DNA of 37,637 bases from Alphaproteobacteria bacterium (GCA_009782315.1 WRJH01000003.1:1-37637), one strand, 5' to 3'; counted from the first letter of the stretch, positions 883 through 32,282 are shown. Numbers and translations: made by a program. The notes: generated from the letters alone by a model not told the origin.

Positions 883-948
883 ACCTTGTCCTTTATGTGC
901 GACATTTCGACAATTTTTTATGCCTTATGCCCTATGCCTTATGCCTTA
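811..948. repeat. Inverted pair of heptamer arrays AAGGCAT / ATGCCTT
   Basis: Arms 811-842 (in lspA N-terminus) and 918-948 (contains tig stop). Confidence 0.92.
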
Positions 949-2207
949 AAAATTTCGTCCGGCTTTACCGTTTTTTCTTTTATCTTTGCCTGCGCGATCA
1001 TGGCGTCCAACGCCTTTTGTTCGAAAAGCATTCCGCGCATCATGGAAACCGCGTTCGGATTTTTGTTATAGAATTCGAAAACCTGCTGCGGGTTCGGATA
1101 TCCCGCCGCCTCTTTCCAGATTGTTTTCTGCAAATCTTCGTTTGTGACTTTGACATCGTTCGCGCTGCCCCATTCCGCCAGAACCAGGCCCAGTTTCACG
1201 CGGCGTTCGGCGTCTTTCATTTCTTTCTTTTCGTCGAATGCGACGCCTTTGCTTGTCGCTTCCCTTTTCGCCATGTCGAATTCCTGGGACACCAAAGTTT
1301 CAGGGATTTCCATTTTCACCTTGTCCGCCAGCATGTCCAAAAGCTCGTTCCGCATTTCGCGGCGCGCGGCGTCTTCGTACTGTTCCGCCAGTATGCGTTT
1401 TATGTGTTCGCGCAAATCGGCGGCGGATTCCCGGCCGACTTCTTTGGCAAAGGCATCGGACAGTTCTGGCAGAATGGATTTCCGAATTTCATGTATTTCG
1501 ATTTCAAACTTTGTCTTTTGCCCGGCCAGATTTGGCGCGTGATAGTCTTTCGGAAATGTGACGTCGATATCAAACTTGTCGCCCGTTTTATGGCCGACGA
1601 TTTTTTCTTCGAATCCGGGTATGAAAGACCCGCTGCCCAGGACCAGGCGATGCTTTTTCGCCTCTCCCCCTTCGAACGGTTCGTTTCCTAAAAACCCTTT
1701 GAAATCAATGACGGTAACGTCGCCGTTTTGGGCCTTGTATCCGGCGTCCTGCATTTCGAACGTCGCGCGGGATTTCCGCAGGTTGTCCAAAGATTTTTCA
1801 ATTTCGCTTTCCGGCACTTCGGCGATTTTTTTCGTAATTGTGAACCCCGACAATTCGATTTTCGGCAGCGCCGGCAGTACGTCGAATTCGATTGAGTACT
1901 CAACATCCTGTCCGCGCGCGAATTTCGTTATATCGGCCTTTGGCGCGCCGGCCAGGCGCAGATTCTTTTCCTTTGCATAGGCATCCATATCCGCGTTCAT
2001 CAGCTTGTCGACGGCGTCGGCATGCGCGGCGTCGCCGTATTTCTGTTGCAGAATATTCATCGGAATTTTGCCCGGACGAAATCCCGGTATTTTCGCCTTT
2101 TCGCCGTATTTGGCCAGTATTTCACAGGCAGATTTCTGTATTTCATCGGCGGTCAGCAAACCCGCGATATGATAATGCAAATCTTTGATTTTTTCTTTCT
2201 TGAACAT
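939..2207 (-). CDS. tig: Trigger factor
   Basis: IPGFRPGKIP ribosome-binding motif; FKBP domain (IDFKG, LGSGSFIPGFEE, VTFPKDYHA). Confidence 0.98.
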   Translation of the reverse strand: MFKKEKIKDLHYHIAGLLTADEIQKSACEILAKYGEKAKIPGFRPGKIPMNILQQKYGDAAHADAVDKLMNADMDAYAKEKNLRLAGAPKADITKFARGQDVEYSIEFDVLPALPKIELSGFTITKKIAEVPESEIEKSLDNLRKSRATFEMQDAGYKAQNGDVTVIDFKGFLGNEPFEGGEAKKHRLVLGSGSFIPGFEEKIVGHKTGDKFDIDVTFPKDYHAPNLAGQKTKFEIEIHEIRKSILPELSDAFAKEVGRESAADLREHIKRILAEQYEDAARREMRNELLDMLADKVKMEIPETLVSQEFDMAKREATSKGVAFDEKKEMKDAERRVKLGLVLAEWGSANDVKVTNEDLQKTIWKEAAGYPNPQQVFEFYNKNPNAVSMMRGMLFEQKALDAMIAQAKIKEKTVKPDEIFKA

Positions 2208-2310
2208 ATAAACGCCCCTTTATTTCAGCCCGCCCATTATAGTGTCAAATTGCCGGATTGCAACTTTTTTATACTTTACACAAGGGGCCCTTTTTCGGTA
2301 CATTATGGAT

Positions 2311-3390
2311 ATGAGAAAACTGCTTGCTCTATGCTCTATGCTCTATGCTCTTGCGCCGCTGGCGGCGCACGCGTCCGAATACCGCGCGGCGATTGTCGCG
2401 GACATGGATACCGGCGCGATATTGTTCCGCGACCGCGACGAAGAATTGAACTATCCGGCCAGCCTTACCAAAATAATGACGCTTTATCTGACGTTCGACG
2501 CGCTGGAAAGCGGGCGCCTGCACCTTTCCGACCAACTGATAGTATCCGCGGCCGCGGCAAATGCGCCGCCTGTGAAACTGGGCCTGGCGGCGGGTTCGAA
2601 AATTTCCGTCGACGACGCGATAAAGGCGGTCGCGGTGCACAGCGCCAACGACGTCGCGCGCGTATTGGCCGAAAATCTGCGCGGCGGGCGCGAGGCTACC
2701 TTTGCATCAATGATGACGGACGTGGCGAACCAAATCGGTCTTTCCCAGACTAATTTTGAAAACGCGTCGGGACTTCCCGACGACGACCATCTGTCGTCCG
2801 CGCGGGATATCGCGCTGCTGGCCATCGCGATTCACCAGCATTTTCCGGGGTATTGGAAATATTTCGGAATACGGAATTGGACATACGGCGGCCGGACTTA
2901 TACGAACGGGAATAAATTGCTGGGCAACTATGCCGGCGCGAATGGCATGAAGACCGGATTTACGAACAGCGCGCGCTATTGCTTGGTCGCAACGGCGGCA
3001 CGCGACGGCAAGAATATTGTGACGGTTGTTTTGGGCGCGCCTAACCGGGATGTCCGTCTGAACGCCTCGCGGAAATTGCTGGACCGCGCTTTCGGAACGG
3101 AAAGCCGGGAATTGAAAATCGAAGACCCGGACGAACAAACCGCTGTGCAAAAACCGAAACCTGTTTCCAGCGGCGGCGGCAAATCGGGGGTACAATTCGG
3201 CGCATTCGGCAGTCGGAACGCCGCAACCGAACAGGCAAAAAAAGTCCAAAAATACACCGGCATTGTACCAAAAATAGAACAGACTGGGGGCATGTTCCGC
3301 GTCCGGGCTTACGGACTATCGGCGACCGCGGCGGACGGGGCGTGCAAAAAATTCCGCGACCAGAAACTGGATTGTTTTATAATCAAATGA
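2311..3390 (+). CDS. D-alanyl-D-alanine carboxypeptidase (peptidase S11) with C-terminal SPOR-like domain
   Basis: PASLTKIMT (SxxK), SAND (SxN), KTG; VQFGAF SPOR-like tail; start placed at MRKLL (2305 also possible). Confidence 0.92.
   Translation: MRKLLALCSMLYALAPLAAHASEYRAAIVADMDTGAILFRDRDEELNYPASLTKIMTLYLTFDALESGRLHLSDQLIVSAAAANAPPVKLGLAAGSKISVDDAIKAVAVHSANDVARVLAENLRGGREATFASMMTDVANQIGLSQTNFENASGLPDDDHLSSARDIALLAIAIHQHFPGYWKYFGIRNWTYGGRTYTNGNKLLGNYAGANGMKTGFTNSARYCLVATAARDGKNIVTVVLGAPNRDVRLNASRKLLDRAFGTESRELKIEDPDEQTAVQKPKPVSSGGGKSGVQFGAFGSRNAATEQAKKVQKYTGIVPKIEQTGGMFRVRAYGLSATAADGACKKFRDQKLDCFIIK
2325..2351. repeat. Heptamer array (TGCTCTA)n within signal peptide
   Basis: About 4 units encoding ALCSMLYAL. 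Confidence 0.9.
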
Positions 3391-3983
3391 ATTCGAAAAT
3401 AGAAAAATTAATCAAACAATTCGCAAAGCTGCCGCGCGTCGGCGGCCGCGCGGGTCAGCGGATTGTCCTGGGGCTTTTACAGGATAAAACCGGAAAATCG
3501 GCCGCCCTTGCGGCCGCATTGATTGATGCGGCGGAAAGCATCAAACCATGCGCGACCTGCGGCTGTTTGACCGAAAACAATCCTTGCGAATTCTGCCTTG
3601 ATGCGGGCCGCGAAAATGGCCAGCTGTGCCTGGTTCGGGATTTGGGCGACGTCTGGACATTGGAAAAATCGGGGGTGTTCCGCGGCCGGTACCATATTGT
3701 CGGCGGACTTTTGTCGGCGGCGACGGGAACGACGCCCGCCGATTTGAATATCGAAAATATCCCTTTGCGAATTGCGGCGGAAAACATTTCCGAAATTATT
3801 TTCGCATTGCCGAATACGGTCGAAGGCAAAACGACCCAGCATTTCATAATTAACAACTTGCAATTATCAATTAACAATTTGCAATTCACTGAATTGGCGT
3901 CGGGCGTGCCGCTGGGCGGCGATTTGGATTATATAGACGACGGCACATTAAATATAGCTTTCGGAAACAGAAAACAGATATGA
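3387..3983 (+). CDS. recR: Recombination mediator RecR
   Basis: HhH LPRVGGRAGQR, CxxC...CxxC zinc finger, TOPRIM, GVPLGGDLDYID; ATGA overlap with upstream stop. Confidence 0.96.
   Translation: MNSKIEKLIKQFAKLPRVGGRAGQRIVLGLLQDKTGKSAALAAALIDAAESIKPCATCGCLTENNPCEFCLDAGRENGQLCLVRDLGDVWTLEKSGVFRGRYHIVGGLLSAATGTTPADLNIENIPLRIAAENISEIIFALPNTVEGKTTQHFIINNLQLSINNLQFTELASGVPLGGDLDYIDDGTLNIAFGNRKQI
3848..3889. repeat. Degenerate heptamer array (AATTNNC)6 in recR
   Basis: aattaac aacttgc aattatc aattaac aatttgc aattcac; encodes INNLQLSINNLQF. Confidence 0.8.
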
Positions 3984-4861
3984 AAAACCCGTCTTTCGAC
4001 TTTCGACTTTCGACTTTCGACTCACTGGCGGCTCTGCCGCCTGTTTCCGAAATGATGCGCGCCGCGGGACTAGAGCCCAAAAAGCAATTCGGCCAGAATT
4101 TTTTATTCGATTTGAATCTGACCGGAAAGATAGCGCGCGCTGTTCCAAATATCGAAAATTCAACCGTTGTCGAAGTGGGACCGGGACCTGGCGGACTTAC
4201 CCGCGCGCTGCTTTTGGACGGCGCCCGCAAAGTCATCGCCATCGAAAAAGATAAAACAACCGCGCCGATTTTGGAACAAATCGCGGCGGCGGATGGGCGG
4301 TTGGAAATCATATTTGCGGACGCGTTGAAATTCGATTTTGCCCGGCTTGGGAAGATTTCCATCTGTTCCAATCTGCCCTATAACGTCGGCACGGAATTAT
4401 TGATTCGCTGGCTGCACGATATGGAAAATATTTCGTCCATGACATTGATGTTTCAACGCGAAGTTGCGGAACGAATTGTTGCCGCGCCCGGCACGGAACA
4501 TTACGGCCGCCTGTCGGTTTTGACATCGCTTTTAGCGGACGCAAAAATATTATTCGATGTTCCGAATACGGCGTTCGTACCCAGGCCGAAAGTTCAATCG
4601 GCGGTTGTCCAAATCATTCCGAAAAATGTAGGGGCGCGCACCCACCCCGCGAAATCTTTGATTTCGCCGGGACCCGGGGGAAACGCGCCCATAGATAAAA
4701 TCGAAAAACTTACTGCGAAACTTTTCGGCCAGCGCAGAAAGATGATTCGCGGAATCCTGCCCGGCGCCCTCTGGGAACAATTCGGGCTTTCAGGCACGGA
4801 AAGGGCCGAAGAATTAACACCTGAAAAATTTGCCGAAATCGCCGCCGCAAATGTGATATAA
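3980..4861 (+). CDS. rsmA: 16S rRNA adenine dimethyltransferase KsgA/RsmA
   Basis: KKQFGQNFL, VEVGPGPGGLT, NLPYNV, MFQREVAERI, FVPRPKVQS. Confidence 0.97.
   Translation: MKNPSFDFRLSTFDSLAALPPVSEMMRAAGLEPKKQFGQNFLFDLNLTGKIARAVPNIENSTVVEVGPGPGGLTRALLLDGARKVIAIEKDKTTAPILEQIAAADGRLEIIFADALKFDFARLGKISICSNLPYNVGTELLIRWLHDMENISSMTLMFQREVAERIVAAPGTEHYGRLSVLTSLLADAKILFDVPNTAFVPRPKVQSAVVQIIPKNVGARTHPAKSLISPGPGGNAPIDKIEKLTAKLFGQRRKMIRGILPGALWEQFGLSGTERAEELTPEKFAEIAAANVI
3994..4021. repeat. Heptamer array (TTTCGAC)4 in rsmA N-terminus
   Basis: Four perfect units encoding FDFRLSTFD. Confidence 0.95.
4628..4690 (+). repeat. GTAG-type REP-like element in frame in rsmA
   Basis: 63 nt, 60/63 identical to the reverse complement of 13161-13223. 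Confidence 0.92.
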
Positions 4862-4882: not shown

Positions 4883-6586
4883 ATGAATCTATCCATCCTT
4901 GTCATATTGGGCGTGGCTTTCGCGCTGGTCTATTTGCTGCGCGTGGCGCATGTCGGAACTTTAATCGCATTCCTGTTCGCCGGAATCGTCGCGGGGCCTT
5001 ACGGCCTGGGGCTTTGGGAATTAACCGACACCTGGTCGTTTCTGGGAGAAATAGGAATTATATTTTTATGGTTCAGTATGGGCCTGGAACTGAACACGCG
5101 GCGATTGTGGCAAATGCGCGATACGATATTCGGATTCGGCGCGGCCCAGGTTCTGGCGGTTGCGGTAATGTTGTTTCCGCTTTTGTTCGGCATTACGCCG
5201 TGGGGGATTTTGCCCGTTATTATGGTGTGCCTTTTGCTTTCCATGTCGTCCAGTTCAAGTGATTTGGATCTGCTTGCGGAACGGAATGAATTACAGACTA
5301 CATTGGGCCGGCAAAGTTTTTCGATTCTGCTGTTCCAGGACCTTTTGGCCATACCGCTTATCGCGATGGTTCCGATTTTCGCCGGGAAACAGTTTAATCT
5401 GGGCGCCGAAGTTATCGATATAACTGTCATGTCCGTCGGCCTTATTATCGGTGTCGTGATTGTCGGCCGGCTGGTTTTGCAACCGCTGATGCGGCACGTG
5501 TCGCGGTTGAAATCCAAAGAAGCGTCGCTGATTGCGATATTCCTGAATATCATCGGCTGGGTCGTGGTTATGGAATTCGTGGGACTGCCGCCGGCAATCG
5601 GCGCGTTCCTTGGCGGTATGTTGATGAGCGAGACGCTGTACAGACATCAAGTCCAATCCGAAATCGCGCCATACCGGATTTTGTTTTTATCGTTCTTTTT
5701 CATTGCGTTGGGCATGGGGTTGAATCTGCCTATGCTGGCCGCGAACTGGTGGCTGGTTGCGGGCGGCGCAATCCTGTTGGTCGGCGTAAAATTCATCGCG
5801 ATATATGCCGTCGCGCGCCTGCGCCGGGTTCATCGCCGCGAAGCGTTCCTGATTGCGCTGATATTGGCCCAGGGCGGCGAATTCGGTCTGTTGATATTGC
5901 AGATGATGCGGCAAAACGGGATAGAGGCGATACCGTTCCAACATTCCGAAATCCTGATGTCCGTCATAGTGGTGTCGATGATTATGACGCCTATATTGCT
6001 TGCCATATACGACCGGCTGTATGAATCTGGCAAACTGGTATCCGGCGCCCGCGCGCGCAAGGTAAATATCGGCGCGACCGAAAAACCCGAAGTGATTATA
6101 TGCGGATTTGGGCGCGTCGGGCAAACGATTGCGAAAATGATGGAATCCCAGAATATCCCGTATGCGGCCATAGACATGAATGTCGACGCGGTTGTTCGCG
6201 GCCGGAACGAAGGCTTTAACGTATTTTACGGCGACACTGCAAAGGCGGCTGTGCTGTCCGAAATCGGCCTGGCGCCGCGTCGGACTCGCGCGGTTGTGAT
6301 TGCGCTTGATAACGCCAGCATTGCGAAAAGCACGGTCCGCGCGGTAAAACAGGCGACGCCGAACGTCCGCATATTCGCCCGCGCAAGAAATCTGGAAGAA
6401 GCGCTGATATTGCAAAGAGAGGGGGCAAAGCTTGCATTGCCTGAAACGATTGAATCGTCGTTCATGCTTGGCGAACAGGTTTTGGAAACCCTTGGCATAA
6501 AACAGGATAAAATAGACATTCTGTTGTCCCGTCTGCGCGGCGACAATTACGCGACTCTTTCGAAAATCCTGGACCGGAATAAATAA
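4883..6586 (+). CDS. Kef-type CPA2 cation/proton antiporter with TrkA-N domain
   Basis: Multi-TM N-terminus, LLFQD, LAQGGEF, ICGFGRVG Rossmann motif. Confidence 0.93.
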   Translation: MNLSILVILGVAFALVYLLRVAHVGTLIAFLFAGIVAGPYGLGLWELTDTWSFLGEIGIIFLWFSMGLELNTRRLWQMRDTIFGFGAAQVLAVAVMLFPLLFGITPWGILPVIMVCLLLSMSSSSSDLDLLAERNELQTTLGRQSFSILLFQDLLAIPLIAMVPIFAGKQFNLGAEVIDITVMSVGLIIGVVIVGRLVLQPLMRHVSRLKSKEASLIAIFLNIIGWVVVMEFVGLPPAIGAFLGGMLMSETLYRHQVQSEIAPYRILFLSFFFIALGMGLNLPMLAANWWLVAGGAILLVGVKFIAIYAVARLRRVHRREAFLIALILAQGGEFGLLILQMMRQNGIEAIPFQHSEILMSVIVVSMIMTPILLAIYDRLYESGKLVSGARARKVNIGATEKPEVIICGFGRVGQTIAKMMESQNIPYAAIDMNVDAVVRGRNEGFNVFYGDTAKAAVLSEIGLAPRRTRAVVIALDNASIAKSTVRAVKQATPNVRIFARARNLEEALILQREGAKLALPETIESSFMLGEQVLETLGIKQDKIDILLSRLRGDNYATLSKILDRNK

Positions 6587-6725
6587 TTTCTGATTTAGGA
6601 TTTCGGATTTCTGATTTGGAGATTGATTGAAATACATACATTAAAATCAAACGATTTTTATGACTTATATATGAAGTATCGGCGCGCTCCAAATCCTAAA
6701 TCAGAAATCATATATCAGAAATCCT
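6586..6725. repeat. Inverted pair of heptamer arrays ATTTNNG / CNNAAAT
   Basis: Arms 6586-6620 (starts in the antiporter stop codon) and 6688-6725. Confidence 0.88.
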
Positions 6726-6734
6726 ATTTTCCCC

Positions 6735-7963: not shown

Positions 7964-7983
7964 TGTTTGCTCACTTTGTTCGC

Positions 7984-8018
7984 AGTGACTAGTAATTAGT
8001 GACTAGTGACTAGTTATT
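7984..8018. repeat. Heptamer array (AGTGACT)n containing the truB stop
   Basis: agtgact agtaatt agtgact agtgact agttatt. Confidence 0.85.
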
Positions 8019-9049
8019 ATTCGCTTTGGCCGCAGCTGTCCGTTTATAATTTCGCCGATTCCAATGAACCCGCCGTTATTATAGATACGCCGCAAACCAT
8101 CGCCGTTACTATCGATAAATCCGCCGTTTTTGAACAGTTCCGCGTCTTTATCGCCGATTTCCAAAACCAGAATGTCGTCCAGTCCGAAATCCACCGGTTT
8201 CAGGTATTCCAAAACCGGTTGGTGTTCCGCCTTCGCTTCCGCTCCGGCGCGACAGGCATTATTATACAGATTTTCCAGAAAATCAAGCGCCGCGGCATCT
8301 TTTATTTCAAAATTATGGGTGCGCGTCCGGCGAATGCTGTCGCAAGTGCAGATGAAACCGTTTCCCGTTTTCCGTTTCCCGTTTTCCGCATTATTAATTT
8401 CATCGACGATTTGTTGCGCCAAGGCCCGCACATAAGTCCCGGCGGAACACTGGACCCTGAACTCGGTCGATGTAGGGGCGTGCCGCGCACGCCCGGGCGC
8501 AAGCATTGCGCCCCTACATACTTCCAATTCATATATATTAACCCGTCGCGCGGGCACTTCAAATTCCGCGCCGCGCCGTGCCAATTCGTATGCCCGGCGG
8601 CCACCGATATGCACGGCGCTGTATGCGGGCGGCGTTTGTTCTATTTCGCCAACCAGCACGGACAATGCGGCCGATATCTGCTCACCCGACGGCACACTGT
8701 CGTTTTGTTCCATAACCTTTCCCGTAATATCATCTGTGTCTGTCTTGATTCCCCATTGAACAGAAAATTCATACTCTTTTTGACATCTGTGCTCTCTGCT
8801 CTCTGCTCTATGCTCTAAATACGGTATCATCTTGGTCGCCTCGCCCAGCGCGATTGGCAGAACACCGGACGCCATGGGGTCCAAAGTTCCCAAATGTCCG
8901 AATTTTTTTATCCCGAACATGCGCGCGACGCGGCCGCCGGCCGCGCGACTGGTCATGCCGGACGGTTTATCCAAAATAATCCACCCGCCTTCGTCCGCCT
9001 TCACTTCGTTACGGCGCGACTTCGGCGCGGCAAGCCCGCTTTTGCTCAT
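8003..9049 (-). CDS. truB: tRNA pseudouridine(55) synthase with multiple repeat-derived insertions
   Basis: LDKPSGMTS, GHLGTLDPMASGVL, QTPPAYSA, CSAGTYVR; start placed at ATG 9049. Confidence 0.96.
   Translation of the reverse strand: MSKSGLAAPKSRRNEVKADEGGWIILDKPSGMTSRAAGGRVARMFGIKKFGHLGTLDPMASGVLPIALGEATKMIPYLEHRAESREHRCQKEYEFSVQWGIKTDTDDITGKVMEQNDSVPSGEQISAALSVLVGEIEQTPPAYSAVHIGGRRAYELARRGAEFEVPARRVNIYELEVCRGAMLAPGRARHAPTSTEFRVQCSAGTYVRALAQQIVDEINNAENGKRKTGNGFICTCDSIRRTRTHNFEIKDAAALDFLENLYNNACRAGAEAKAEHQPVLEYLKPVDFGLDDILVLEIGDKDAELFKNGGFIDSNGDGLRRIYNNGGFIGIGEIINGQLRPKRIITSH
8227..8257 (+). repeat. CCSCCTTCRC...GG.GGRCAGG-type palindromic repeat in truB
   Basis: CCGCCTTCGCTTCCGCTCCGGCGCGACAGGC; related to 8985, 21472, 28483. 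Confidence 0.7.
8358..8388. repeat. Heptamer array (CCGTTTY)4 in truB
   Basis: Encodes ENGKRKTGNG. Confidence 0.9.
8472..8517. repeat. GTAG-type REP doublet in truB
   Basis: GTAGGGGCGTGCCGCGCACGCCC + GGGCGCAAGCATTGCGCCCCTAC; encodes CRGAMLAPGRARHAPT. Confidence 0.9.
8786..8817. repeat. Heptamer array (TCTNTGC)n in truB
   Basis: Encodes EHRAESREHR. Confidence 0.9.
8985..9035 (+). repeat. Nested CCGCCTTC-type palindromic repeat in truB N-terminus
   Basis: CCGCCTTCGT[CCGCCTTCACTTCGTTACGGCGCG]ACTTCGGCGCGGCAAG. Confidence 0.7.
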
Positions 9050-9050
9050 A

Positions 9051-11579
9051 TCATTCACCAAACAGGGACATTTGTTTTTTTGCGGCCAATTCCGGCTCTT
9101 TAACTTTTTTCACAATAGACGGCTCTTCCGTACCAGGCACAACAACCGGCGGCGGCGCTCTATCTATGCTCTGTTCTCTATGCTCTCTGCTCTCCAGTTG
9201 TTGCAGAATCCGCTCTGCGGATTCTACAACACTGGCTGGCATTCCGGACATTTTTGCGACATGTATTCCGTATGAAGACCCCGCAACCCCCGGCATAATT
9301 TTATGCAAGAATACGATTTCGTTATTGTGTTCCGCAACCTGGACCGTCAGATTTGTAATCGAATTCCGCGTATCCGAAAGCGCGGTCAATTCGTGATAAT
9401 GCGTCGCGAACAGCGTGCGCGGCGCGGCATTGTCGACAAATTCAAGAACGGCCTGGGCGATGGCCATGCCGTCGAACGTTGCGGTTCCGCGACCTATTTC
9501 GTCGAATATGATGAACGATTTTTCGGTCGCGCGGTTTAATATGTTCGCGGTTTCCGTCATTTCCACCATGAAAGTGGACTGTCCCGCGGCCAGATTATCC
9601 GACGCGCCAACGCGGCTGAACAGCTGGTCGCATATTCCAATGCTTGCGGAATTCGCGGGCACGAAAGACCCCAAATGGGCCAAAACGACAATCAGCGCGT
9701 TCTGTCGCAGATATGTGGATTTTCCGGCCATGTTCGGCCCGGTTAAAAGGGCGATGCGTTTTTCATTCAAATCGCAATCGTTTTTTACAAACTGGTCGCC
9801 GCGCCCGCGCAGCATGCATTCGACAACCGGGTGGCGGCCGCCGGTAACGGCGAATTCGCCGCCGTCCGTCATATTCGGCCGGGTCCAGCTATATTCTTCC
9901 GCGGCCAGTGAAAGCGAAAGCCATACGTCGGCATCGGCCAGCAAATCGGCGACATACATCAAATCGTCCGCCGCCGCGCGGATATGTTCGATTAATTTCG
10001 CGATGATTTCCGCCTCTATCGCGGCCGCTTTTTCGGCGGCGCCGCGAACTTCGTTGTCCAATTCGATAAGGCGCGCGGTTGTAAACCGGACGTTTCCGGC
10101 CATCGTCTGGCGGTGGATATAGGTATCCTTTGCATCGAACAAAGCGCCCGCCTTTGCCGCCGGCACTTCGATATGATACCCCAGTATGTTGTTGTATTTG
10201 ATTTTCAAAGTATTGATTCCGGACGCGGCCGCGTATTCGGATTGCAGGGACGCGATGACTTCCTTTGCGCCATGGGCCAGCGAATTCATATTGTCCAGCG
10301 CCGTGTCGTATCCGCCCCGTATGATGCCGCCGTCGCGAAAAAATGCCGGGCATTCGTCCGACAGCGCCAGGCGCAGTTCCGCGGAAAGCCCGTCCATAGT
10401 ATTTATATTTTCGAAACACGCGGACTGATTTGAATCAAGTTTGCGTCCGCATATTTTGAATTCCGGCAATCGCGCGATAAATTCGGCGCATCCTTTCAAA
10501 TCGCGTGGGCACCCGCGCCCGGATAACAGGCGCCCCAGCGCCCGCCCGATATCCGATGTCTTGGATAACAGTGCGCCCAGTTCCGCGGCGACATGACTGT
10601 TTAACAACAGGTGCCCGATGTGTTCCTGGCGGCTGCGGATTTCGGAAATATCGCCCGAAAGTTCGCGCAAGTATGCGCGCAGTTTCCGCGCGCCCGCGGC
10701 GGTTTTCGTCTTGTCCAGAATGTCCAATAATGTGGCGCCGCCGGACTGCATCGGCTCGTCAATTTCCAAGGACCGCCATGTCGCGGCATCGACCAACAGC
10801 CGGGCGCCCGCGCCCAGACGGTACGGCGCGCGGAACGACAATTTCGCGCCCCGCTGGGTCTGTTCCAAATACCCGGCCAGCAAATTGACCGACATATTGA
10901 CGGATGTTTTGTCGATTCCGAATATAGTCCGAACGGTATCCGATATGTTTTCGCGTTCGAAAATCCTGTCGTAAAGCGGCGTCGTGCGAAATGCAGTTCT
11001 TATGCGTTTTATATCCGGCAATTCCGCCGCGCTTTCGGGGTAAATTATTTCGGACGGATTTATACGAACCATTTCGTCGAACAGTCCGTCCGACAGTTCT
11101 CCAACGAAAAATTCGCCCGTGGATATGTCGCATCCGGCGATATGGAATAATGAATTTTCCGGCACGATGGCGACCAGAAAGTTTGATTTTTTCGGGCTTA
11201 ACAGATTTTCATCCGTCAAAGTTCCGGCGGTCAGAACGCGGACGACGCCGCGCTTGATTTGTTTCGCGCCTCTCGCCTTTGCCTCTTCCGGCGATTCCAA
11301 TTGTTCGGCGATGGCGACGTTATACCCTGCGCGCACCAGCCGCCCCAGATAATTTTCCGCCGCATGCCACGGTATTCCGCACATGGGGATTTCACCGCCC
11401 GACGCATCGGTTCCGCGACGGGTCAGGACCAGTTCCAGCGCGCGCGACACGACAACGGCGTCTTCGAAAAAGCATTCGTAAAAATCGCCCAACCGGAACA
11501 ACAGCACGGCCCCCGGACATTCGGATTTAATGTCCAGGTATTGCTGCATAACGGGCGTAAGGGCTGGTTTGATTGGCAT
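9051..11579 (-). CDS. mutS: DNA mismatch repair protein MutS
   Basis: TPVMQQY, FRLGDFYECF, GRHPVVE, TGPNMAGKSTYLRQ, STFMVEM, DEIGRGT, SYGIHVA. Confidence 0.98.
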   Translation of the reverse strand: MPIKPALTPVMQQYLDIKSECPGAVLLFRLGDFYECFFEDAVVVSRALELVLTRRGTDASGGEIPMCGIPWHAAENYLGRLVRAGYNVAIAEQLESPEEAKARGAKQIKRGVVRVLTAGTLTDENLLSPKKSNFLVAIVPENSLFHIAGCDISTGEFFVGELSDGLFDEMVRINPSEIIYPESAAELPDIKRIRTAFRTTPLYDRIFERENISDTVRTIFGIDKTSVNMSVNLLAGYLEQTQRGAKLSFRAPYRLGAGARLLVDAATWRSLEIDEPMQSGGATLLDILDKTKTAAGARKLRAYLRELSGDISEIRSRQEHIGHLLLNSHVAAELGALLSKTSDIGRALGRLLSGRGCPRDLKGCAEFIARLPEFKICGRKLDSNQSACFENINTMDGLSAELRLALSDECPAFFRDGGIIRGGYDTALDNMNSLAHGAKEVIASLQSEYAAASGINTLKIKYNNILGYHIEVPAAKAGALFDAKDTYIHRQTMAGNVRFTTARLIELDNEVRGAAEKAAAIEAEIIAKLIEHIRAAADDLMYVADLLADADVWLSLSLAAEEYSWTRPNMTDGGEFAVTGGRHPVVECMLRGRGDQFVKNDCDLNEKRIALLTGPNMAGKSTYLRQNALIVVLAHLGSFVPANSASIGICDQLFSRVGASDNLAAGQSTFMVEMTETANILNRATEKSFIIFDEIGRGTATFDGMAIAQAVLEFVDNAAPRTLFATHYHELTALSDTRNSITNLTVQVAEHNNEIVFLHKIMPGVAGSSYGIHVAKMSGMPASVVESAERILQQLESREHREQSIDRAPPPVVVPGTEEPSIVKKVKEPELAAKKQMSLFGE
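9157..9193. repeat. Heptamer array (CTATGCT)-like in mutS C-terminus
   Basis: Encodes ESREHREQSIDRA. Confidence 0.85.
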
Positions 11580-13584: not shown

Positions 13585-13612
13585 CAGTTGTTAGTTGTTA
13601 GTTGTCAGTTGT
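13585..13612. repeat. Heptamer array (YAGTTGT)4 containing the gyrA stop
   Basis: cagttgt tagttgt tagttgt cagttgt; encodes QLTTNN*. Confidence 0.9.
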
Positions 13613-17361: not shown

Positions 17362-17377
17362 ATGTCTTATGCCTTAT
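17360..17377. repeat. Short TTATGCC-type array containing the thioesterase stop
   Basis: ttatgtc ttatgcc ttat (only about 2.5 units). Confidence 0.55.
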
Positions 17378-20976: not shown

Positions 20977-21103
20977 AACTGAAATTCCTTTGATAATTTT
21001 AATATTGGACTGGCAAATAATACATTATAAAAAACATAAAATCAACCGTCTTGCGATTCTTAATTCTATGCCTTATGCCTTATGCCCTATGCCCTATGCC
21101 CTA
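20933..21103. repeat. Inverted pair of ARGGCAT / YTATGCC arrays
   Basis: Arms 20933-20962 (DUF2147 signal peptide) and 21066-21103 (ends in comF stop). Confidence 0.93.
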
Positions 21104-24192: not shown

Positions 24193-24315
24193 GGTGGCTG
24201 GTGGCTCGTGCTGGTGGCTGGTGACTAAATGGATTCATAGCAAATTTCTATTGGAAATAACAATAAAATTTTTTATACTGCCCCCATGAATCACCAGCCA
24301 CCAGCCACCAGCTAC
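24184..24315. repeat. Inverted pair TGGTGGC / CCACCAG spanning the dnaQ-uvrD divergent promoter
   Basis: Arms 24184-24226 (embeds dnaQ ATG) and 24291-24315 (uvrD HQPPATS). Confidence 0.9.
24251..24279 (+). promoter_or_regulatory. Putative promoter for leaderless uvrD
   Basis: TTGGAA-N17-TATACT, ATG 6 nt downstream, no RBS. Confidence 0.5.
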
Positions 24316-26409
24316 AAATCACGATTAAATCCCGAACAATTGTGCGCCGTGGAAACGACGGACGGTCCGGTTTTGGTTCTGTCCGGCGCGGGTACGGGAA
24401 AGACATCCGTTCTTGTCGCGCGCATGGCGCATATCCTGGACCGGAATTTGGCGCGGCCGTGGGAAATCCTGGCCGTGACGTTTACTAACAAGGCTGCGGC
24501 AGAGATGAGGACCCGTGTCGCGGCGCTTGCGCCTACCCCTGAATGGGTCGGCACTTTTCATTCCATTTGCCTTCGTATATTGCGGATTAATTCTGCGGCG
24601 GCGGGACTTGGCAATAATTTCATAGTGCTGGGCGAAGACGGTCAGAAAGCGGTTTTGAAAACCGTGATAACGGCGATGAAACTGGACACCAAAGAATACC
24701 CGCCCGCGGATTGGGTGGAACGCATATCGGCAATAAAGGACAAGGGCCTGGGCGATAACTCCCCCCTTCGGGGGGAAGTCGACGGCAAAGCCGTCGGTGG
24801 GGGGCAAAAAATCTATAACGCGTACAACGCGGAATTGGCGCGGATGAACGCGGTGGATTTCGGCGATTTGATTTTGAAAGTTTTGGAACTGTTCAAAGGC
24901 CGCCCGGACGTGCTGCAAAAATATCAAAAACAATTCAAATATATCATGGTTGATGAATACCAGGATACGAACGCCGCGCAATACCAATTGCTGCGCATGC
25001 TGGCTGCGGCACATAACAATATATGCTGTGTGGGCGATGATGACCAGTCGATATATTCCTGGCGCGGGGCGGATATAAAAAATATTTTGGGATTCGAAAG
25101 CGATTACGCGGACGCAGACGTAATCAGGTTAGAGACGAATTATCGCAGCACGGGAAATATCCTGGGCGCGGCAAACAGCCTGATACGGCATAACACGGAC
25201 CGTCTGGGCAAAAACCTGCGCGCAAGCGATGGCGCGGGCGACGGCGAAAAAATCCGCATCCTGCATCTGCCGACGGATTTCGACGAAGCGCGCCTGACTG
25301 CGGACGCCATCACCGCGTATCCAGCGGGTGAAGTCGCCGTGCTTATCCGCGCCGGTTCGCTGTCCAGATTGTTCGAAGAAGAATTCGCGCGCCGCGGCAT
25401 AGAATACAAACTTGTCGGCGCGACGAAATTTTACGACCGCATGGAAATAAAGGATACGGTCGCGTACTCGAATCTTCTTGCCCACCCGCACGACGATATT
25501 TCGTTCGCGCGGGTCATATCGAAACCGCGCCGCGGATTCGGCGATGTCGCCGTGCAAAAAATCCGGGATTTCGCCGCGGCGAAAAAAATCGGAATGCTGG
25601 CTGCATTGCGCGAAATGCCGCTGTCGGGCGCGCAAAAAAAATCCGCGGACGAATTTTCGGCCGTATTCGATTTTGCATGGGAAAACATGGCGCCTTCTGA
25701 TGCGGTGTCGGAACTGTTGGAAAAATCCGGATATATGAAAATCTGGGCGGAATCCAAAGACGCGGATGCGCCCGAAAGATTGCAAAATGTCCGGGAATTG
25801 ATTTCGAACGTGATTTCAAAATACGATTCTTTGCCGGAATTTTTGGAACATGCCGCGCTGATGATGACGGACACGGGCGATACGGAACCGGATGCTTCCA
25901 GCCGCGGCGCGGTCGCCATAATGACGATTCATGCGGCAAAGGGCCTGGAATTCGACACGGTGTTTCTGCCCGCGTGGGAGGAAGGAATTTTCCCGAACGA
26001 CATAGCTATAAAAGAAGGCGGAATCGAAGAAGAGCGCCGCCTGGCATACGTTGCCATAACGCGCGCAAAACGCCGTGCGATTATAACGCATACGATGTCG
26101 CGCATGCTTTACGGCACAAGACAACCCGGCACCCAAAGCCGGTTTATCGCAGAGATTGATGAAGAATTCATAGGGCATAAGGCACAAGGCATAAGGCATA
26201 ATAATATAAAACCGGCGGAACATTATTCTGAAAAAACAAAACCCATTTGCCCCATGCCTTATGCCTTATGCCCTAATATGGTCGGCAAACTTGTGACTCA
26301 TGCCGAATTGGGCGGCGGCGTGGTTATAGAGGACGGCGGGGAAATACTGACCGTCGCTTTCAAAGACAAGGGCATTAAAAAAATCGCCCGGAAATTTGTG
26401 GGGTTGTGA
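24286..26409 (+). CDS. uvrD: UvrD/PcrA family helicase
   Basis: GAGTGKT, VTFTNKAA, VDEYQDTN, VGDDDQSIY, NYRS, TIHAAKGLEF, EERRLAYVAITRA. Confidence 0.95.
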   Translation: MNHQPPATSYKSRLNPEQLCAVETTDGPVLVLSGAGTGKTSVLVARMAHILDRNLARPWEILAVTFTNKAAAEMRTRVAALAPTPEWVGTFHSICLRILRINSAAAGLGNNFIVLGEDGQKAVLKTVITAMKLDTKEYPPADWVERISAIKDKGLGDNSPLRGEVDGKAVGGGQKIYNAYNAELARMNAVDFGDLILKVLELFKGRPDVLQKYQKQFKYIMVDEYQDTNAAQYQLLRMLAAAHNNICCVGDDDQSIYSWRGADIKNILGFESDYADADVIRLETNYRSTGNILGAANSLIRHNTDRLGKNLRASDGAGDGEKIRILHLPTDFDEARLTADAITAYPAGEVAVLIRAGSLSRLFEEEFARRGIEYKLVGATKFYDRMEIKDTVAYSNLLAHPHDDISFARVISKPRRGFGDVAVQKIRDFAAAKKIGMLAALREMPLSGAQKKSADEFSAVFDFAWENMAPSDAVSELLEKSGYMKIWAESKDADAPERLQNVRELISNVISKYDSLPEFLEHAALMMTDTGDTEPDASSRGAVAIMTIHAAKGLEFDTVFLPAWEEGIFPNDIAIKEGGIEEERRLAYVAITRAKRRAIITHTMSRMLYGTRQPGTQSRFIAEIDEEFIGHKAQGIRHNNIKPAEHYSEKTKPICPMPYALCPNMVGKLVTHAELGGGVVIEDGGEILTVAFKDKGIKKIARKFVGL
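24759..24804 (+). repeat. CCCC/GGGG double-hairpin palindromic insert in uvrD
   Basis: CTCCCCCC-TTC-GGGGGGAAGT CGACGGC-AAA-GCCGTCG GTGGGGGG; encodes SPLRGEVDGKAVGG. Confidence 0.7.
26169..26275. repeat. Inverted heptamer pair wholly in frame within uvrD
   Basis: Arms 26169-26201 (IGHKAQGIRH) and 26246-26275 (ICPMPYALCP). Confidence 0.92.
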
Positions 26410-26428
26410 TTCGTGGTTGGTGGTTCGT
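26404..26428. repeat. TGGTGGT-type array containing the uvrD stop
   Basis: ttgtgat tcgtggt tggtggt tcgt, abutting a REP. Confidence 0.75.
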
Positions 26429-26498
26429 AGGGGCGCATATATGCGCCCTTTAATTATGAACACGTTCATACTATACGGGCGCATATATCCACCCCTAC
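26427..26498. repeat. GTAG-type REP doublet
   Basis: GTAGGGGCGCATATATGCGCCC ... GGGCGCATATATCCACCCCTAC. Confidence 0.9.
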
Positions 26499-26529
26499 AA
26501 AAAACGGATTCTTTCGAATCCGTTTTTTT
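26499..26529. terminator. Bidirectional intrinsic terminator
   Basis: AAAAAACGGATTC-TTTC-GAATCCGTTTTTTT. Confidence 0.9.
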
Positions 26530-28834
26530 ATTGCCGGCATTGCATTGTCGTGCCGCCTTCCTCCGCTTTCCACGAATACCCCGGCGCGCATCTGCAATAT
26601 TGCATTCCTGGAATTGCTCCACCTGTGCCCCCCAACTGTTGATTATTCACAGCATTGCATTCTTCATACGACACACAACTGCCGTTCATTACCATAAATG
26701 AACTGTCGCACTTACACATCGCGTTGACCCAGCCGTTAGACGTACCGTTAGCGCTGATAGCTGTTCCGCCAGTTGCGAATGTCGAATTATCCGGGCACAG
26801 CATGGATTGATAGAATATTTCCGAAATTCCGTTTATGAAAACATTCTGGTCATTTCGGTTTGTTTCCGCCGAAAATACCGCGTATCCGCATGTCAGCGCG
26901 ACATTGCGGCACGCGCCCCGCATAACATTGTACACATGTTCCGCCGACGCGTTGGACGACCATGCGCCGACCTGGCTGACCTGTTGGCTGTAACAGAATG
27001 CTACGTCCTGCATGCACGTTGTCGCAAAATCGGAAATTACGCGGGACTGGGCGGCCTTTATATTAACCATCGCGCGCTGTATGAATGTTTTTACAACCTC
27101 GTTATGAGGATTGAATTTTCCGGACTTGTCATACGTGACGGCACGGCACCGGTCCATAGTCGCACGGCAAAGTCCGCTGGTCGCATCCTGGCTTGTGCCG
27201 ATTTTCTGCAACAGGAAATTGATGATGCATGTGCCGTCGGTCAGTGCGGTTGAAGAGCATTGACCCGGCACGGGCAGCCCCTCTAACGACATGTCCGCCA
27301 TATTGAATCCCGCCGTCATGCCCGTTATATTCGTTATATCCTTGCCCAAAACGACAGTGCCGTTTTCGTCGATATACATTTTCGTCGGGTCTATGCATTT
27401 AACAAAATCGCGGCCGCACACCATGTCGTCGGTCATGCATTTTTCCAGCGCGCCGACGCAACCCTTTGCGTCGTATTGGTTATGGTTCTGCATGACGGCA
27501 AGCCTGGCCTGTTGCAGCATCTGCGTCGCGGCGCGCACATTGGTGCGCAACGTCTGGTTCATCTTTTCCAATCCCTTTTCGTACTGGGTGCAGTCGCGGT
27601 CGATTTCAATTTCGTACCGGGCGGTGATTTGCGACACGTTGACGCCGGACCGCCGGCAAGCGGACAATACGTTTTCACACCGGCCCCTTGCGGCGTTCAA
27701 TAATTGGGTCCCGCGCATATTCGCAAAGGTCCCGCCGCCGGTTCCGAATAGATTACCGATATTGAACATTTCGGCCGGATCGCCCGACAGCGCGAAATCT
27801 ATATTCATATCCAAACCGTATCCGGTCGTGCCGGATGCGGCGACGAACGATTCCGGATTTTTTATCAGCTGTTCGATTTGGTCCAGCATGTTGCGGTTTT
27901 CGGTTGTGTCGCGCGCGCCGGTCAATGCAAGTTCCGCTTCGGTCGCGCTTAATATCGCGCGGATTTCATCGGCGGTAAGGCCGACATAGCGTATACGCTG
28001 GGCGACTTCGTTCAATTCGTTGTTGGCTTCTTTTGTGGCGTTTTCGACGCGGGAATAATTGGACAGCCGGTCGGAACAGCTGCACCGTTTTTGATTCGCG
28101 TCCAGGACGTTGCAGAACTGGTCCATGCATTCCGTGTATTGTTCGTGGCATGCGGCGGTCAAATCGCCCATGGCGGACAGCTTGTCGGTCAGTTCGTTAA
28201 TAGACACGGACGTCACTTGGGTTCCGGCGCGGTCGGTGCGCGTTGCGATGCGGCCGGTGTTGCCGATGTTGGATGTTGTGGGCTGGCCCGTGCCGGCGAC
28301 GTTTCCGCGGCCGCCGACTTCGGCGACGGTGGGCCGCAGAATGATTCCGGCGCGGCGCAAACTGGCCTCTTGATTCACAACGCCTTTGTCGTTTTCATGA
28401 AAAGCCGCGCGTCCCATGGCGCTGCCGGCGCCCTGCGCCTGAACGCCCGCCGCGCGGGATACGGCCGCAGAACGCGCAACAGCCTGCCCCCCGGAACCTT
28501 GGTGAAGGGGGGTGCGCGCAACAACGGGGGCGGAAACCTGGGGTGCGGCGGCCGATTGTTGCGGCACGGCTTGTGATGTTGTTGCTGTGCGTGTTACAAC
28601 GGCATTACGCGATACACCTGGCGCGACCGCCGTTCTCTCCGCTCTATTATCTATGCTCTCTTCTCTATGCTCTATGCTCTGCGGCGCCTGCGCCGCAGCC
28701 TGCGTCACGGTTCTGGAAACCGCCGCGCGACCGTATTGGATTGGTTCATCAGCGTTTGCAATGAAAGCAAGGCACAAAGCCCCGGCTGTTGCCAGGGCCA
28801 CTGTCTTTATGAAAAATCTTCCCTGTGATTTCAT
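26528..28834 (-). CDS. Large exported Cys-rich hypothetical protein (paralog A)
   Basis: Signal peptide, Ala/Arg/Thr-rich N-terminus, CHEQYTECMDQFC...KRCSC, EGF-like Cys tail. Confidence 0.88.
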   Translation of the reverse strand: MKSQGRFFIKTVALATAGALCLAFIANADEPIQYGRAAVSRTVTQAAAQAPQSIEHREESIDNRAERTAVAPGVSRNAVVTRTATTSQAVPQQSAAAPQVSAPVVARTPLHQGSGGQAVARSAAVSRAAGVQAQGAGSAMGRAAFHENDKGVVNQEASLRRAGIILRPTVAEVGGRGNVAGTGQPTTSNIGNTGRIATRTDRAGTQVTSVSINELTDKLSAMGDLTAACHEQYTECMDQFCNVLDANQKRCSCSDRLSNYSRVENATKEANNELNEVAQRIRYVGLTADEIRAILSATEAELALTGARDTTENRNMLDQIEQLIKNPESFVAASGTTGYGLDMNIDFALSGDPAEMFNIGNLFGTGGGTFANMRGTQLLNAARGRCENVLSACRRSGVNVSQITARYEIEIDRDCTQYEKGLEKMNQTLRTNVRAATQMLQQARLAVMQNHNQYDAKGCVGALEKCMTDDMVCGRDFVKCIDPTKMYIDENGTVVLGKDITNITGMTAGFNMADMSLEGLPVPGQCSSTALTDGTCIINFLLQKIGTSQDATSGLCRATMDRCRAVTYDKSGKFNPHNEVVKTFIQRAMVNIKAAQSRVISDFATTCMQDVAFCYSQQVSQVGAWSSNASAEHVYNVMRGACRNVALTCGYAVFSAETNRNDQNVFINGISEIFYQSMLCPDNSTFATGGTAISANGTSNGWVNAMCKCDSSFMVMNGSCVSYEECNAVNNQQLGGTGGAIPGMQYCRCAPGYSWKAEEGGTTMQCRQ
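28483..28512 (-). repeat. CCSCCTTCRC-type palindromic repeat in paralog A
   Basis: Minus strand CCCCCTTCACCAAGGTTCCGGGGGGCAGG; encodes PLHQGSGGQ. Confidence 0.65.
28641..28680. repeat. Heptamer array (GCTCTAT)-like in paralog A
   Basis: Encodes QSIEHREESIDNRA. Confidence 0.85.
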
Positions 28835-31058: not shown

Positions 31059-31192
31059 ATAGGGCATAAGGCACAAGGCATAAGGCATATTTTCCTGTTG
31101 TTAATATTTGGATTTTCGATGATAATTTCACCGTTAACCAAAAGGAAAAAATATGAAAAAACTTATGCCTTATGCCTTATGCCTTGTGCCTT
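31059..31192. repeat. Inverted pair AAGGCAT / CTTATGC
   Basis: Arms 31059-31089 (identical to 26170-26200) and 31162-31192 (mliC signal peptide). Confidence 0.93.
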
Positions 31193-31493: not shown

Positions 31494-31746
31494 ATTCCGG
31501 CATGACCGATACGGTCGCGCGGTTTCCGGTTCCGCGTTTGAAACGCACGAATCCCGCGATTTTGGAAAATATGGTGTGGTCTTTGCCCATCCCGACGTTC
31601 AGACCGGGGTGAACTTTCGTTCCGCGCTGGCGGATAATGATGTTTCCGGCAATGACGCGTTGTCCGCCGCCCTTTTTGACGCCCAGTCTGCGCCCCGCTG
31701 AATCGCGTCCGTTTGACGATGACCCGCCGCCTTTTTTATGTGCCAT
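31492..31746 (-). CDS. rpmA: 50S ribosomal protein L27
   Basis: [41 protein letters not shown]. Confidence 0.98.
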
Positions 31747-31769
31747 AATTTGCTCCTTTCAGTCGCAAG

Positions 31770-31838
31770 CAGTCGGCAGTCTATAGTCTTCAGTCGTCAG
31801 AATTTTATCTTTCGACTTTCGACTTTCGACTTTCGACT
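31770..31838. repeat. Inverted pair of related arrays (YAGTCNN)4 / (TTTCGAC)4 between rplU and rpmA
   Basis: Arms 31770-31800 and 31810-31837; the second overlaps the rplU stop. Confidence 0.85.
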
Positions 31839-32136
31839 ATCCTTTAATTTCTGTTATTTTCACCACCGTTATATGCTGGCGGTGGCCGCGTGTTCTGCGG
31901 TAATTCTGGCGGCGTTTTTTCTTGAACACCAAAATTTTATCCGCGCGTTTTTGTTCCAATATTTCGCAAACGACTTTCGCGCCTTTGACAATCGGGTCGC
32001 CGACTTTGTCGCCCACCATCAGAACCTGGTCGAATTCGACCTTGCCTTCGGCTTTTAACTTTTCAATCTTGATGGTATCGCCGACTTTTGCGCGATATTG
32101 TTTGCCGCCTGTCTGAAATATAGCATAATTTTCCAT
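31837..32136 (-). CDS. rplU: 50S ribosomal protein L21
   Basis: YAIFQTGGKQYR, VFKKKRRQNYRRTRGHRQ; start at MENY. Confidence 0.97.
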   Translation of the reverse strand: MENYAIFQTGGKQYRAKVGDTIKIEKLKAEGKVEFDQVLMVGDKVGDPIVKGAKVVCEILEQKRADKILVFKKKRRQNYRRTRGHRQHITVVKITEIKG

Positions 32137-32202
32137 ATTTTTTGCCTTTTTGTCTAAAACTTTATGCAATAATGGCATATTTTTCTTGAAAGTCAAGAAA
32201 AA

Positions 32203-32282
32203 AGGTAAGAGGTGTGAAGTAAAAGGTATGAAGTATCCATCGTCCACCTACCTCATACTTCTTACCTCATACCTTTTACCTA
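32203..32282. repeat. Inverted pair ARGTANG / CNTACYT
   Basis: Arms 32203-32236 and 32247-32281, five units each; second arm overlaps the PBP1A stop. Confidence 0.88.

Follow-up and report, generated by a model that had tools for sequence, protein, structure and literature searches.

In a 37,637-nucleotide stretch of DNA from an alphaproteobacterium (GCA_009782315.1 WRJH01000003.1:1-37637, hereafter the window), nine protein-coding genes end in or against arrays of tandemly repeated 7-base words, and heptamer arrays of this kind are the arms of hairpins. At such a junction the array is better seen as having captured the stop codon than as having grown from it as a seed. We lean, without great firmness, towards the view that the arrays belong to small hairpin elements with stems built of 7-base words, which were gained at gene junctions and which survive at the stop edge through tolerance. 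The window is contig C3 of a genome assembly (G000) of 815 kb in 60 contigs, with 52% GC and at 88% completeness, and by the gene calls made here about 86% of this genome is coding. Two sister genomes, G002 and G004, were compared with it in whole. Relatives named through their L21 protein are metagenome-assembled genomes of gut and termite-gut Alphaproteobacteria, including 'Candidatus Enterousia', and the sequencing runs that contain window DNA are termite-gut metagenomes only. Genes were called with our own caller, based on open reading frames (ORFs) and codon scores, which gave 747 genes whose stops are reliable and whose longest-ORF starts overshoot; arrays are merged rows of period 7, 14 or 21 from Tandem Repeats Finder (TRF) with a score of at least 30.

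Heptamer arrays, hairpins and stop codons

Period 7 is an outlier among the tandem repeats of G000, accounting for 379 of 953 TRF rows (the window has 60 rows, mostly of period 7 or 14), and a strict detector returned 126 period-7 arrays from the genome and none after shuffling. The 393 merged arrays of G000 have a median length of 31 bases and represent 126 distinct units, the commonest of which include AGAGCAT (53 loci), AAGGCAT (51 loci) and AAATCAG. When array-to-stop distances are set against permutation, overlap with stop codons lies far beyond chance at every scale: 7 of the 31 arrays in the window (0.85 expected, at most 5 in 2000 permutations), 66 of 393 in G000, counted against called stops (11.3±3.1 under uniform placement, at most 23 in 500), 31 of 291 in G004 (7.6 expected) and 24 of 178 in G002 (5.0 expected). 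Between -100 and -30 from the stop, arrays cover almost nothing; coverage rises sharply at the stop itself, and among the 144 arrays within 60 bases of a stop the proximal edge falls at -5 to +9 in 69 and at 0 to +4 in 34.

The first-pass annotation of the window, which singled out the nine junctions, allowed that overlap of this kind might reflect nothing beyond short intergenic spacing and stop triplets within the units. The median array-free gap between tandem genes is indeed only 22 bases, and a stop-bearing heptamer will end any ORF within 21 bases, an argument also made for the TAACTGA repeats of other bacteria (PMC4679880). Spacing fails to account for the counts once placement is restricted to the gap itself. 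Taking as flush an array no more than 5 bases from the stop, and as a within-gap null its placement inside the same-direction junction, 19 of 48 arrays in G000 tandem gaps with at least 40 spare bases are stop-flush against 2.3 expected, and 2 are start-flush; the corresponding stop-flush values are 14 of 42 against 2.4 in G004 and 5 of 15 against 1.1 in G002. In addition, where a stop-bearing arm holds the stop of the gene, that stop falls in the first unit in 42 cases, in the second in 7 and in the third or later in 12, when random phase would give equal thirds, and arrays whose units have no stop triplet are flush too, 14 of them starting no earlier than 0 and no more than 5 bases from the stop. 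Together with the 66 overlaps against 11.3 expected genome-wide, these results refute chance as the sole explanation, and we give it next to no credence.

Inversion dominates among neighbouring arrays in G000: out of 137 pairs, 90 consist of inverted copies and 44 of unrelated arrays, with just 3 direct, and the loops of the resulting hairpins span 0-171 bases (median 47). Thirteen window stretches were folded as RNA; all nine that contain an inverted array pair gave z-scores of -4.7 to -9.4, and 0 of 200 shuffles were as stable. The two arms co-vary, matched variant units included, and one degenerate 27-base arm variant recurs 3' of at least five different genes.

The hairpins have a polarity. 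The arm richer in stop triplets is the 5' arm in 71 of the 90 inverted pairs in G000 (13 reversed, 6 equal), and the bias persists when unit families are counted instead (24 against 7) and in both sister genomes (20 against 6 in G004, 15 against 0 in G002). The arm that faces the next gene is without those triplets. Because 7 and 3 have no common factor, an arm with one stop triplet per 7-base unit closes every reading frame within 21 bases; since an inverted repeat is identical from both strands, translation entering from either side is therefore stopped in every frame over the same distance. At least two stop triplets are present in 61 of 76 stop-adjacent sense arms. Arms of the AAAGTCG type frequently begin with a TAG variant, and arms of families without a stop triplet begin 0-5 bases past the stop. 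The arrangement shows how a very compact genome can absorb hundreds of inserts without damage to its genes: because a repeat period coprime with codon length stops translation in every frame, an insert can sit on a stop codon.

Orthologous junctions and the source of stop adjacency

Comparison with orthologues indicates what the junctions looked like before the arrays. Reciprocal best matches pair 477 genes of G000 and G002, and for the 69 G000 genes that carry a stop array when the G002 orthologue has none, the difference in C-terminal tail has a median of 0 (interquartile range -1 to 0). Where the array begins at the stop, most alignments reach the last residue of both proteins, and the nine window genes agree with this conserved C-terminal length. 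The ancestral position of the stop has thus been kept, and the array therefore begins there. The gap in G002 is at most 20 bases in 23 of the 35 syntenic junctions that are array-free in that genome, and the alignments place the insert wedged between the stop and the Shine-Dalgarno (SD) sequence of the next gene; at one junction G002 reads TAAttATG, where in G000 a hairpin of 90 bases separates TAAtt from ATG. The junction between rplU and rpmA measures 12 bases (TAAGGAG plus 8 bases) in 11 of the 34 relatives examined. The stop itself can be taken over: in the 22 cases where a G000 array lies at -2 to +1 and G002 has none, the codon is TAG in 12 of the G000 genes and TAA in 16 of the G002 genes, set against 137 TAG stops among all 747 genes of G000.

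The words at the junctions turn over. Junctions occupied in both species carry different units in 15 of 16 comparisons with G004 and 10 of 11 with G002, and the sole unit shared with G002 at an orthologous junction belongs to a cassette that encodes an S23p protein. Counterparts are missing for 62 G000 stop arrays in G004 and for 69 in G002.

Under the favoured reading, elements would have been gained lineage by lineage at gene junctions that were ancestrally about 0-20 bases long, with the start-proximal part taken by the ribosome-binding site; because so little room is left, the stop edge would be nearly the only place where an insert could survive. An element landing on the stop, or a few codons before it, would cost some 6 residues at most, since its stop-bearing 5' arm closes three frames within 21 bases, and hairpins with the stop-bearing arm first would be the type that persists. 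A stop that resembles the word of the abutting array would become its first unit and could then be homogenised, for example from TAA to TAG. The elements of the window would be gene-less versions of the architecture that brackets three S23p genes elsewhere in the genome.

The first-pass annotation proposed instead that arrays may be seeded at TAA, TAG or TGA, which would amount to replication slippage expanding a 7-base segment that includes the stop, so that the array grows out of the stop. A stop triplet does recur at +7 or +14 in 44 of 76 stop-adjacent arrays, copy number differs for the same word after the gene at C8:20505-21368 (about 5.5 units in G000, about 3 in G004), and heptamer copy number varies among Coxiella strains (PMC4990558). 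Seeding is nevertheless already largely refuted, and we regard it as very improbable. The commonest words occur at dozens of loci, up to 53 for a single unit, and identical degenerate arms lie at unrelated genes, as the 27-base variant illustrates; the four non-stop bases of the unit mismatch the ancestral post-stop sequence of the sister genomes; no periodic stop is present in 32 of the 76 arrays; inverted partner arms cannot come from slippage at a stop; and orthologous junctions carry different units. Junctions between two stops are moreover the least occupied (14 of 124). The same annotation's association of arrays with gene ends holds up, in the first-unit phase on the ancestral stop and in flushness above the within-gap null, but not with the stop as seed. 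Its other suggestion, that these are simply the tolerated sites of a compact genome, is largely upheld by the 23 short junctions among 35 and by the conserved C-terminal length, and falls short where flushness exceeds the within-gap null.

Tolerance thus explains most of the pattern, though not cleanly all of it, and a residue points to targeting or function. Several observations weigh against tolerance as a full account. The 19 flush arrays among 48 occur although at least 40 bases are to spare, and in gaps with at least 80 spare bases 9 of 35 elements are still flush against 1.0 expected. Occupancy of junctions is about 15-35% in every gap-length bin, with no rise as spare length grows, which is not obviously compatible with uniform insertion and purifying selection unless constraint is dense in large gaps. 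Occupied junctions tend to coincide between the sister species (odds ratio 3.8, p 2e-4 and 2e-3, for genomes whose kinship makes them not independent). As to origin, descent from S23p cassettes is read from the arms, the loops sharing no detectable sequence with S23p interiors. Finally, searches of the 88%-complete G000 for a mover gave 0 matches to the Y1 transposase family PF01797, with a control matched in 6 of 14 genomes, and 0 to the reverse transcriptase family PF00078.

Length-independent occupancy, flushness in roomy gaps, co-occupancy, differing words and shared outer flanks fit either function or targeted insertion. In the first case stop-adjacent hairpins would serve in RNase III processing between cistrons, of the sort known from rRNA intervening sequences, in protecting the 3' end of the upstream cistron or in interference with terminating ribosomes, as do the repetitive extragenic palindromes (REPs) of E. 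coli that stall ribosomes when within 15 bases of a stop (PMC12306157). Beyond flushness and occupancy, such a role is suggested by orthologous junctions where the hairpins of different genomes are built of different words, PBP1A, tig and rplU for example having a stop-flush hairpin in both G000 and G004, which implies that structure is kept while sequence is replaced; by the co-variation of arms, including matched variant units; and by the presence of RNase III (rnc) in all four good sister genomes. On the other hand, 23 of the 35 syntenic junctions in G002 are at most 20 bases long and have no hairpin, so that at these junctions the hairpin is dispensable, and the 62 and 69 arrays without counterpart in G004 and G002 point the same way. 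The single arrays at truB and gyrA, two of the nine in the window, do not fold, 176 of the 393 G000 arrays lie inside ORFs and one hairpin is translated within uvrD, and RNase III was not found in G000 at its 88% completeness. We consider a function possible but doubtful.

Targeted insertion, in which a mobile unit would recognise either a TAR/TGA-like triplet that agrees with the word at its own end or a stop-adjacent hairpin already in place, whose loop it would enter much as intervening sequences (IVSs) occupy helix tips, seems to us a shade less plausible than function. It would account for the preferred first-unit phase (42/7/12), for arms without a stop unit that still begin 0-5 bases past the stop, and for AAAGTCG-type arms that open with a TAG variant. 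A small ancestral hairpin that includes the rplU stop is present in many relatives, and at C2:22790-22881 the inserts of G000 and G004 share outer flanks (TAATTCGT ... ACGAACGAAGTGAG) while their inner arms come from different heptamer families, as if inserts had been swapped in a fixed stem; the counterpart in G002 has just 2 bases between the two genes. Yet junctions with two stops are the least occupied (14 of 124, compared with 109 of 449 tandem junctions, Fisher p 0.0013, and 35 of 114 start-start junctions, p 0.0003), and the divergent start-start junctions, which have no stop, are occupied most. Fourteen three-way junction alignments, at 65-80% DNA identity, reveal no target-site duplication, and no recombinase candidate emerged from the search for Y1 transposase and reverse transcriptase, with 0 matches to each. 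Within the tolerance reading, three points are inferred: that flushness results from selection on tolerated sites and not from targeting or function; the way in which the elements move; and the descent of the gene-less hairpins from S23p cassettes. The positions and their enrichment, the pairing and orientation of arms, the C-terminal lengths, the gap sizes, the turnover of units and the S23p bracketing are observed directly.

Two observations concern translation starts at these junctions. A 'loop-out' arrangement, with the hairpin holding an upstream SD sequence beside the start, was considered and set aside, as the junctions inspected have an SD-like stretch on the 3' side of the hairpin. 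The motif GAAC(A/G)AAGTGAG occurs six times in G000, seven times in G004 and not at all in G002, the G000 copies being at window positions 7970-7981 (minus strand) and in contigs C2, C5 (3 copies) and C6. Five of the six lie 6-7 bases 5' of an ATG; four of these five directly follow a heptamer 3' arm and the fifth follows the single truB array, and the genes 3' of the motif include ribosomal-protein genes. The motif may be a substitute for a displaced ribosome-binding site.

S23p cassettes and known heptamer repeats

G000 has three genes of the S23p family (PF05635), a four-helix-bundle protein that some 23S rRNA IVSs encode, at C34:5748-6199, C35:982-1413 and C39:1994-2421, the first two intact and the last with an in-frame TAG, and all three have TRF heptamer arrays on both sides that are inverted by sequence inspection. 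Each cassette uses a different arm word (AAGGCAT, ACTAGAT and AATAGGT). Over the three genomes a downstream array accompanies all six PF05635 genes, and the strict period-7 detector finds an upstream array at three of the six, to which TRF adds two G000 loci. The 5' arm of the C34 cassette opens with the stop of the upstream gene, and the same 27-base variant follows at least four other genes. A blastn comparison of cassette interiors with the loops of gene-less hairpins (E 0.01) returned only the three cassettes matching each other; because the interiors match nothing in the hairpins, it is the arms that carry the proposed kinship, and as none of the nine window elements contains a PF05635 gene, these are at most gene-less relatives of the cassettes.

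Two routes to such elements were tried and rejected. Internal deletion of S23p cassettes as the source of the gene-less hairpins was set aside because no similarity was found in the interiors. Mobility of the kind mediated by REP-associated tyrosine transposases (RAYTs), or of a retro-element, was judged from a mover search that covered two families, Y1 and reverse transcriptase; PF01797 and PF00078 gave 0 matches in G000, where the absence of a gene is unproven because the assembly is 88% complete.

A more ambitious proposal, which we regard as possible but unlikely, is that stop-flush hairpins are IVS-type elements in mRNA. The S23p protein would recognise its own 7-base word and spread or maintain the arms, RNase III would cut at the first repeat on the stop and uncouple the cistrons, and the three-frame stop arm would be an adaptation to gene ends. 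If true, a single mechanism would account for the surplus of heptamer repeats that has long been noted in bacteria, for the link between such repeats and stop codons, and for the existence of the orphan S23p family. A clean comparative test of selfish against regulatory hairpins, which also bears on what S23p proteins do, is offered by the three sister genomes, where one junction can carry different words, together with the arm-matched S23p cassettes.

Heptamer repeats that hug stop codons are already known from Xanthomonas and Beggiatoaceae. Rehm et al. (2015, PMC4692102) described heptameric repeats of GGGAATC in Xanthomonas and of GGGGA(C/T)T in Nostoc, and the Xanthomonas repeats likewise consist of tandem 7-base units, about 4 copies there, mostly between ORFs of the same direction. 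G000 shares with them many few-copy loci, arrays within 50 bases of or overlapping the stop (66 of 393 overlap it) and the presence of inverted pairs (90 against 3 direct). Unlike Xanthomonas, with one G-rich quadruplex word per genome, it has 126 canonical words in 815 kb, mostly not G-rich, and no single G-rich, G-quadruplex-capable word. Divergent junctions are the most occupied here and under-represented in Xanthomonas (PMC4692102), and that paper draws no link between its repeats and S23p genes.

In marine Beggiatoaceae, TAACTGA direct repeats (MacGregor 2015, PMC4679880) give stops in three frames when read forward, hence are confined to ORF ends, and 13 sets overlap the upstream stop codon. 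As here, these are heptamer arrays at gene junctions, there including ribosomal-protein operons, and the same forward closure of three frames is seen in G000, where most stop-adjacent sense arms hold at least two stop triplets and 71 of 90 pairs put the stop-bearing arm first. In Beggiatoaceae, however, a single word occurs in nearly all cases as direct repeats (one indirect) just upstream of starts, whereas G000 has many words, mostly in long inverted hairpins. The word TAACTGA is absent among the 40 commonest of the 126 G000 units, the nearest being AACTGAG, with one pair.

The closest parallel for the S23p cassettes is the ORF-bearing 23S rRNA IVS of Coxiella burnetii, which encodes S23p (Warrier et al. 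2016, PMC4990558). Tandem heptamers in variable number precede the S23p ORF of that IVS, and the RNase III cleavage site is where the first of them begins (PMC4990558). Both systems have an S23p/PF05635 gene in a hairpin-forming insert with heptamers, and in G000 all three S23p genes lie between inverted arrays; unlike the Coxiella IVS, which sits in rRNA helices, the elements described here are between or inside protein genes and mostly have no ORF. Enterobacterial REPs and bacterial interspersed mosaic elements (BIMEs) are dispersed imperfect palindromes, many of them within 15 bases past a stop and able to affect translation of the upstream gene (PMC12306157). REPs differ in having a family consensus, in not being 7-periodic and in their tie to RAYT (Y1) transposases, whereas the arrays here are 7-periodic and PF01797 has 0 matches in G000. 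For this lineage our literature search turned up nothing published on these repeats, and apart from the Coxiella IVS it yielded no paper that connects S23p with dispersed hairpins of heptamers.

The inverted pair at window positions 26169-26275, translated within uvrD, recalls the Rickettsia palindromic elements. These are selfish palindromic repeats of a reduced alphaproteobacterial genome that are tolerated in frame within genes; they are consensus elements of 100-150 bases without tandem heptamer arms, and we know of no report that associates them with stop codons. G000 stands apart from the systems above in having as many as 126 words within 815 kb, in a clear polarity that puts the stop-bearing arm first, in stop capture that orthologues document, in words that are replaced while the junctions stay fixed, and in its setting, a reduced gut alphaproteobacterium.

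The nine genes of the window and neighbouring features

The identities of the nine genes are supported by Pfam. All nine stops do lie in or at the edge of arrays, as first annotated, with the qualification that seven of these arrays reach the TRF threshold and those at the thioesterase and uvrD genes are sub-threshold, with 2.4 and about 3.5 units. That the last residues of tig, truB and gyrA are repeat-encoded is likewise borne out by the orthologues in the two sister genomes.

For tig (939-2207, minus strand; stop 939-941), the stop lies inside the 5' arm of the tig-lspA hairpin, an AAGGCAT-type TRF array at 918-948 (minus) that encodes the last residues K and A; the protein ends FKA* in G000 and FKQAEHG* or FKQAEPK* in the sister orthologues. 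Its partner at 811-842 (minus), ATGCCTT on the transcribed strand, lies within the N-terminal coding region of lspA, and the hairpin folds with z -9.3. ATGCCTT-type 3' arms at 811-842 and 31162-31192 encode hydrophobic N-terminal segments (MPYALCL...), the first as the N-terminus of LspA and the second as the signal peptide of an MliC-like lipoprotein, and in G004 an arm of ATGCTCT type is found at roughly the same place in LspA. For annotation this means that last residues, stop type and some N-terminal signal peptides are repeat-derived in this lineage.

The Kef-type antiporter gene (4883-6586, plus; stop 6584-6586) is followed by a TGATTTC-type 5' arm at 6586-6617 (plus; TRF) whose first base is the last base of the stop, paired with an AAATCAG-type 3' arm at 6691-6727 (plus; TRF; z -4.7). 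Two genes have single arrays. The array of truB (8003-9061, minus; stop 8003-8005), of ACTAGTC type at 7984-8014 (minus; TRF), contains the stop and encodes T-S-H, so that the protein ends IITSH* against IITTQG* in the orthologues, and it forms no stable hairpin (z -0.6). That of gyrA (13591-16305, minus; stop 13591-13593), of AACAACT type at 13586-13620 (minus; TRF), also contains the stop and encodes the last residues of the acidic tail, SEQLTTNN* against SEQVAE* in the orthologues, with the tail nearly equal in length; it ends 5 bases short of the start of a merR-family gene and has no fold.

The acyl-ACP thioesterase gene (17374-18096, minus; stop 17374-17376) meets an AAGGCAT-type remnant of 2.4 units at 17360-17376 (minus), found by direct reading below the TRF threshold, whose first triplet is the stop; a terminator-like hairpin lies 3' of it, and the region folds through that terminator-like stem and not through the array. 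At comF (21101-21841, minus; stop TAG 21101-21103) the first triplet of the 5' arm, AGGGCAT/AAGGCAT at 21066-21103 (minus; TRF), is the stop itself, which is TAA at the same codon in both sister genomes, and the arm pairs with 20933-20962 (minus; TRF) at the start of a DUF2147 gene.

Downstream, rplU (31837-32247, minus; stop TAG 31837-31839) has a GTCGAAA-type 5' arm at 31809-31838 (minus; TRF), without a stop triplet in its unit, that overlaps the stop by 2 bases and pairs with a degenerate 3' arm at 31760-31798 (minus; direct reading; GACT every 7 bases; z -5.9), beyond which come AAAGGAG and the rpmA start at 31744-31746. The 5' arm of PBP1A (32280-34391, minus; stop TAG 32280-32282), of GGTAAAA/GGTATGA type at 32249-32281 (minus; TRF), begins after the T of the stop and so overlaps it by 2 bases; it pairs with 32205-32235 (minus; TRF; z -5.9). 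At the rplU-rpmA junction many relatives have in common a small hairpin into which the rplU stop falls (TAATTTCTG ... CAGAAATTA), with 1-2 AAATCAG units; the AAATCAG family is therefore old and widespread in the order. The CTTTCGA/CGACTTT word of the rplU arm occurs at three window sites: at 3993-4022, in the first codons of an rRNA adenine dimethylase gene 10 bases past the recR stop, at 18687-18719, within a class-I tRNA synthetase gene, and at 31809-31838, 3' of rplU.

Two runs of other studies contain stretches that match the window identically, at 31867-32327 and 32182-32840. Contigs from three DNA runs show no insertion or deletion at the arrays, a comparison that says nothing on slippage, since contigs end at arrays and drop rare variants. 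Assemblies break at these arrays. Near the contig end lie a 5S rRNA gene (37078-37192, minus) and the 3' end of a 23S rRNA gene (37306-37637, minus; model positions 2583-2925), with no IVS in the part present.

The stop of uvrD (24286-26409, plus; stop TGA 26407-26409) opens a GTGGTTC-type array of about 3.5 degenerate units at 26407-26431 (plus), read directly below the TRF threshold. The inverted AAGGCAT/ATGCCTT pair and loop at 26169-26275 inside this ORF, translated in frame at a position that follows the helicase core and precedes the conserved C-terminal domain, folds with z -7.0, and one of its units reads AAGGCAC where the usual T would give an in-frame TAA. Directly 3' of the stop array, 26427-26530 holds two structures, first a palindrome rich in GC (TAGGGGCGCATATATGCGCCC ... 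CCCCTAC) and next a hairpin with a U run that resembles a classical terminator; the 3' region folds through these two and not through the array. GC-rich palindromes like that of uvrD are stop-flush at several G002 junctions orthologous to heptamer-hairpin junctions of G000.

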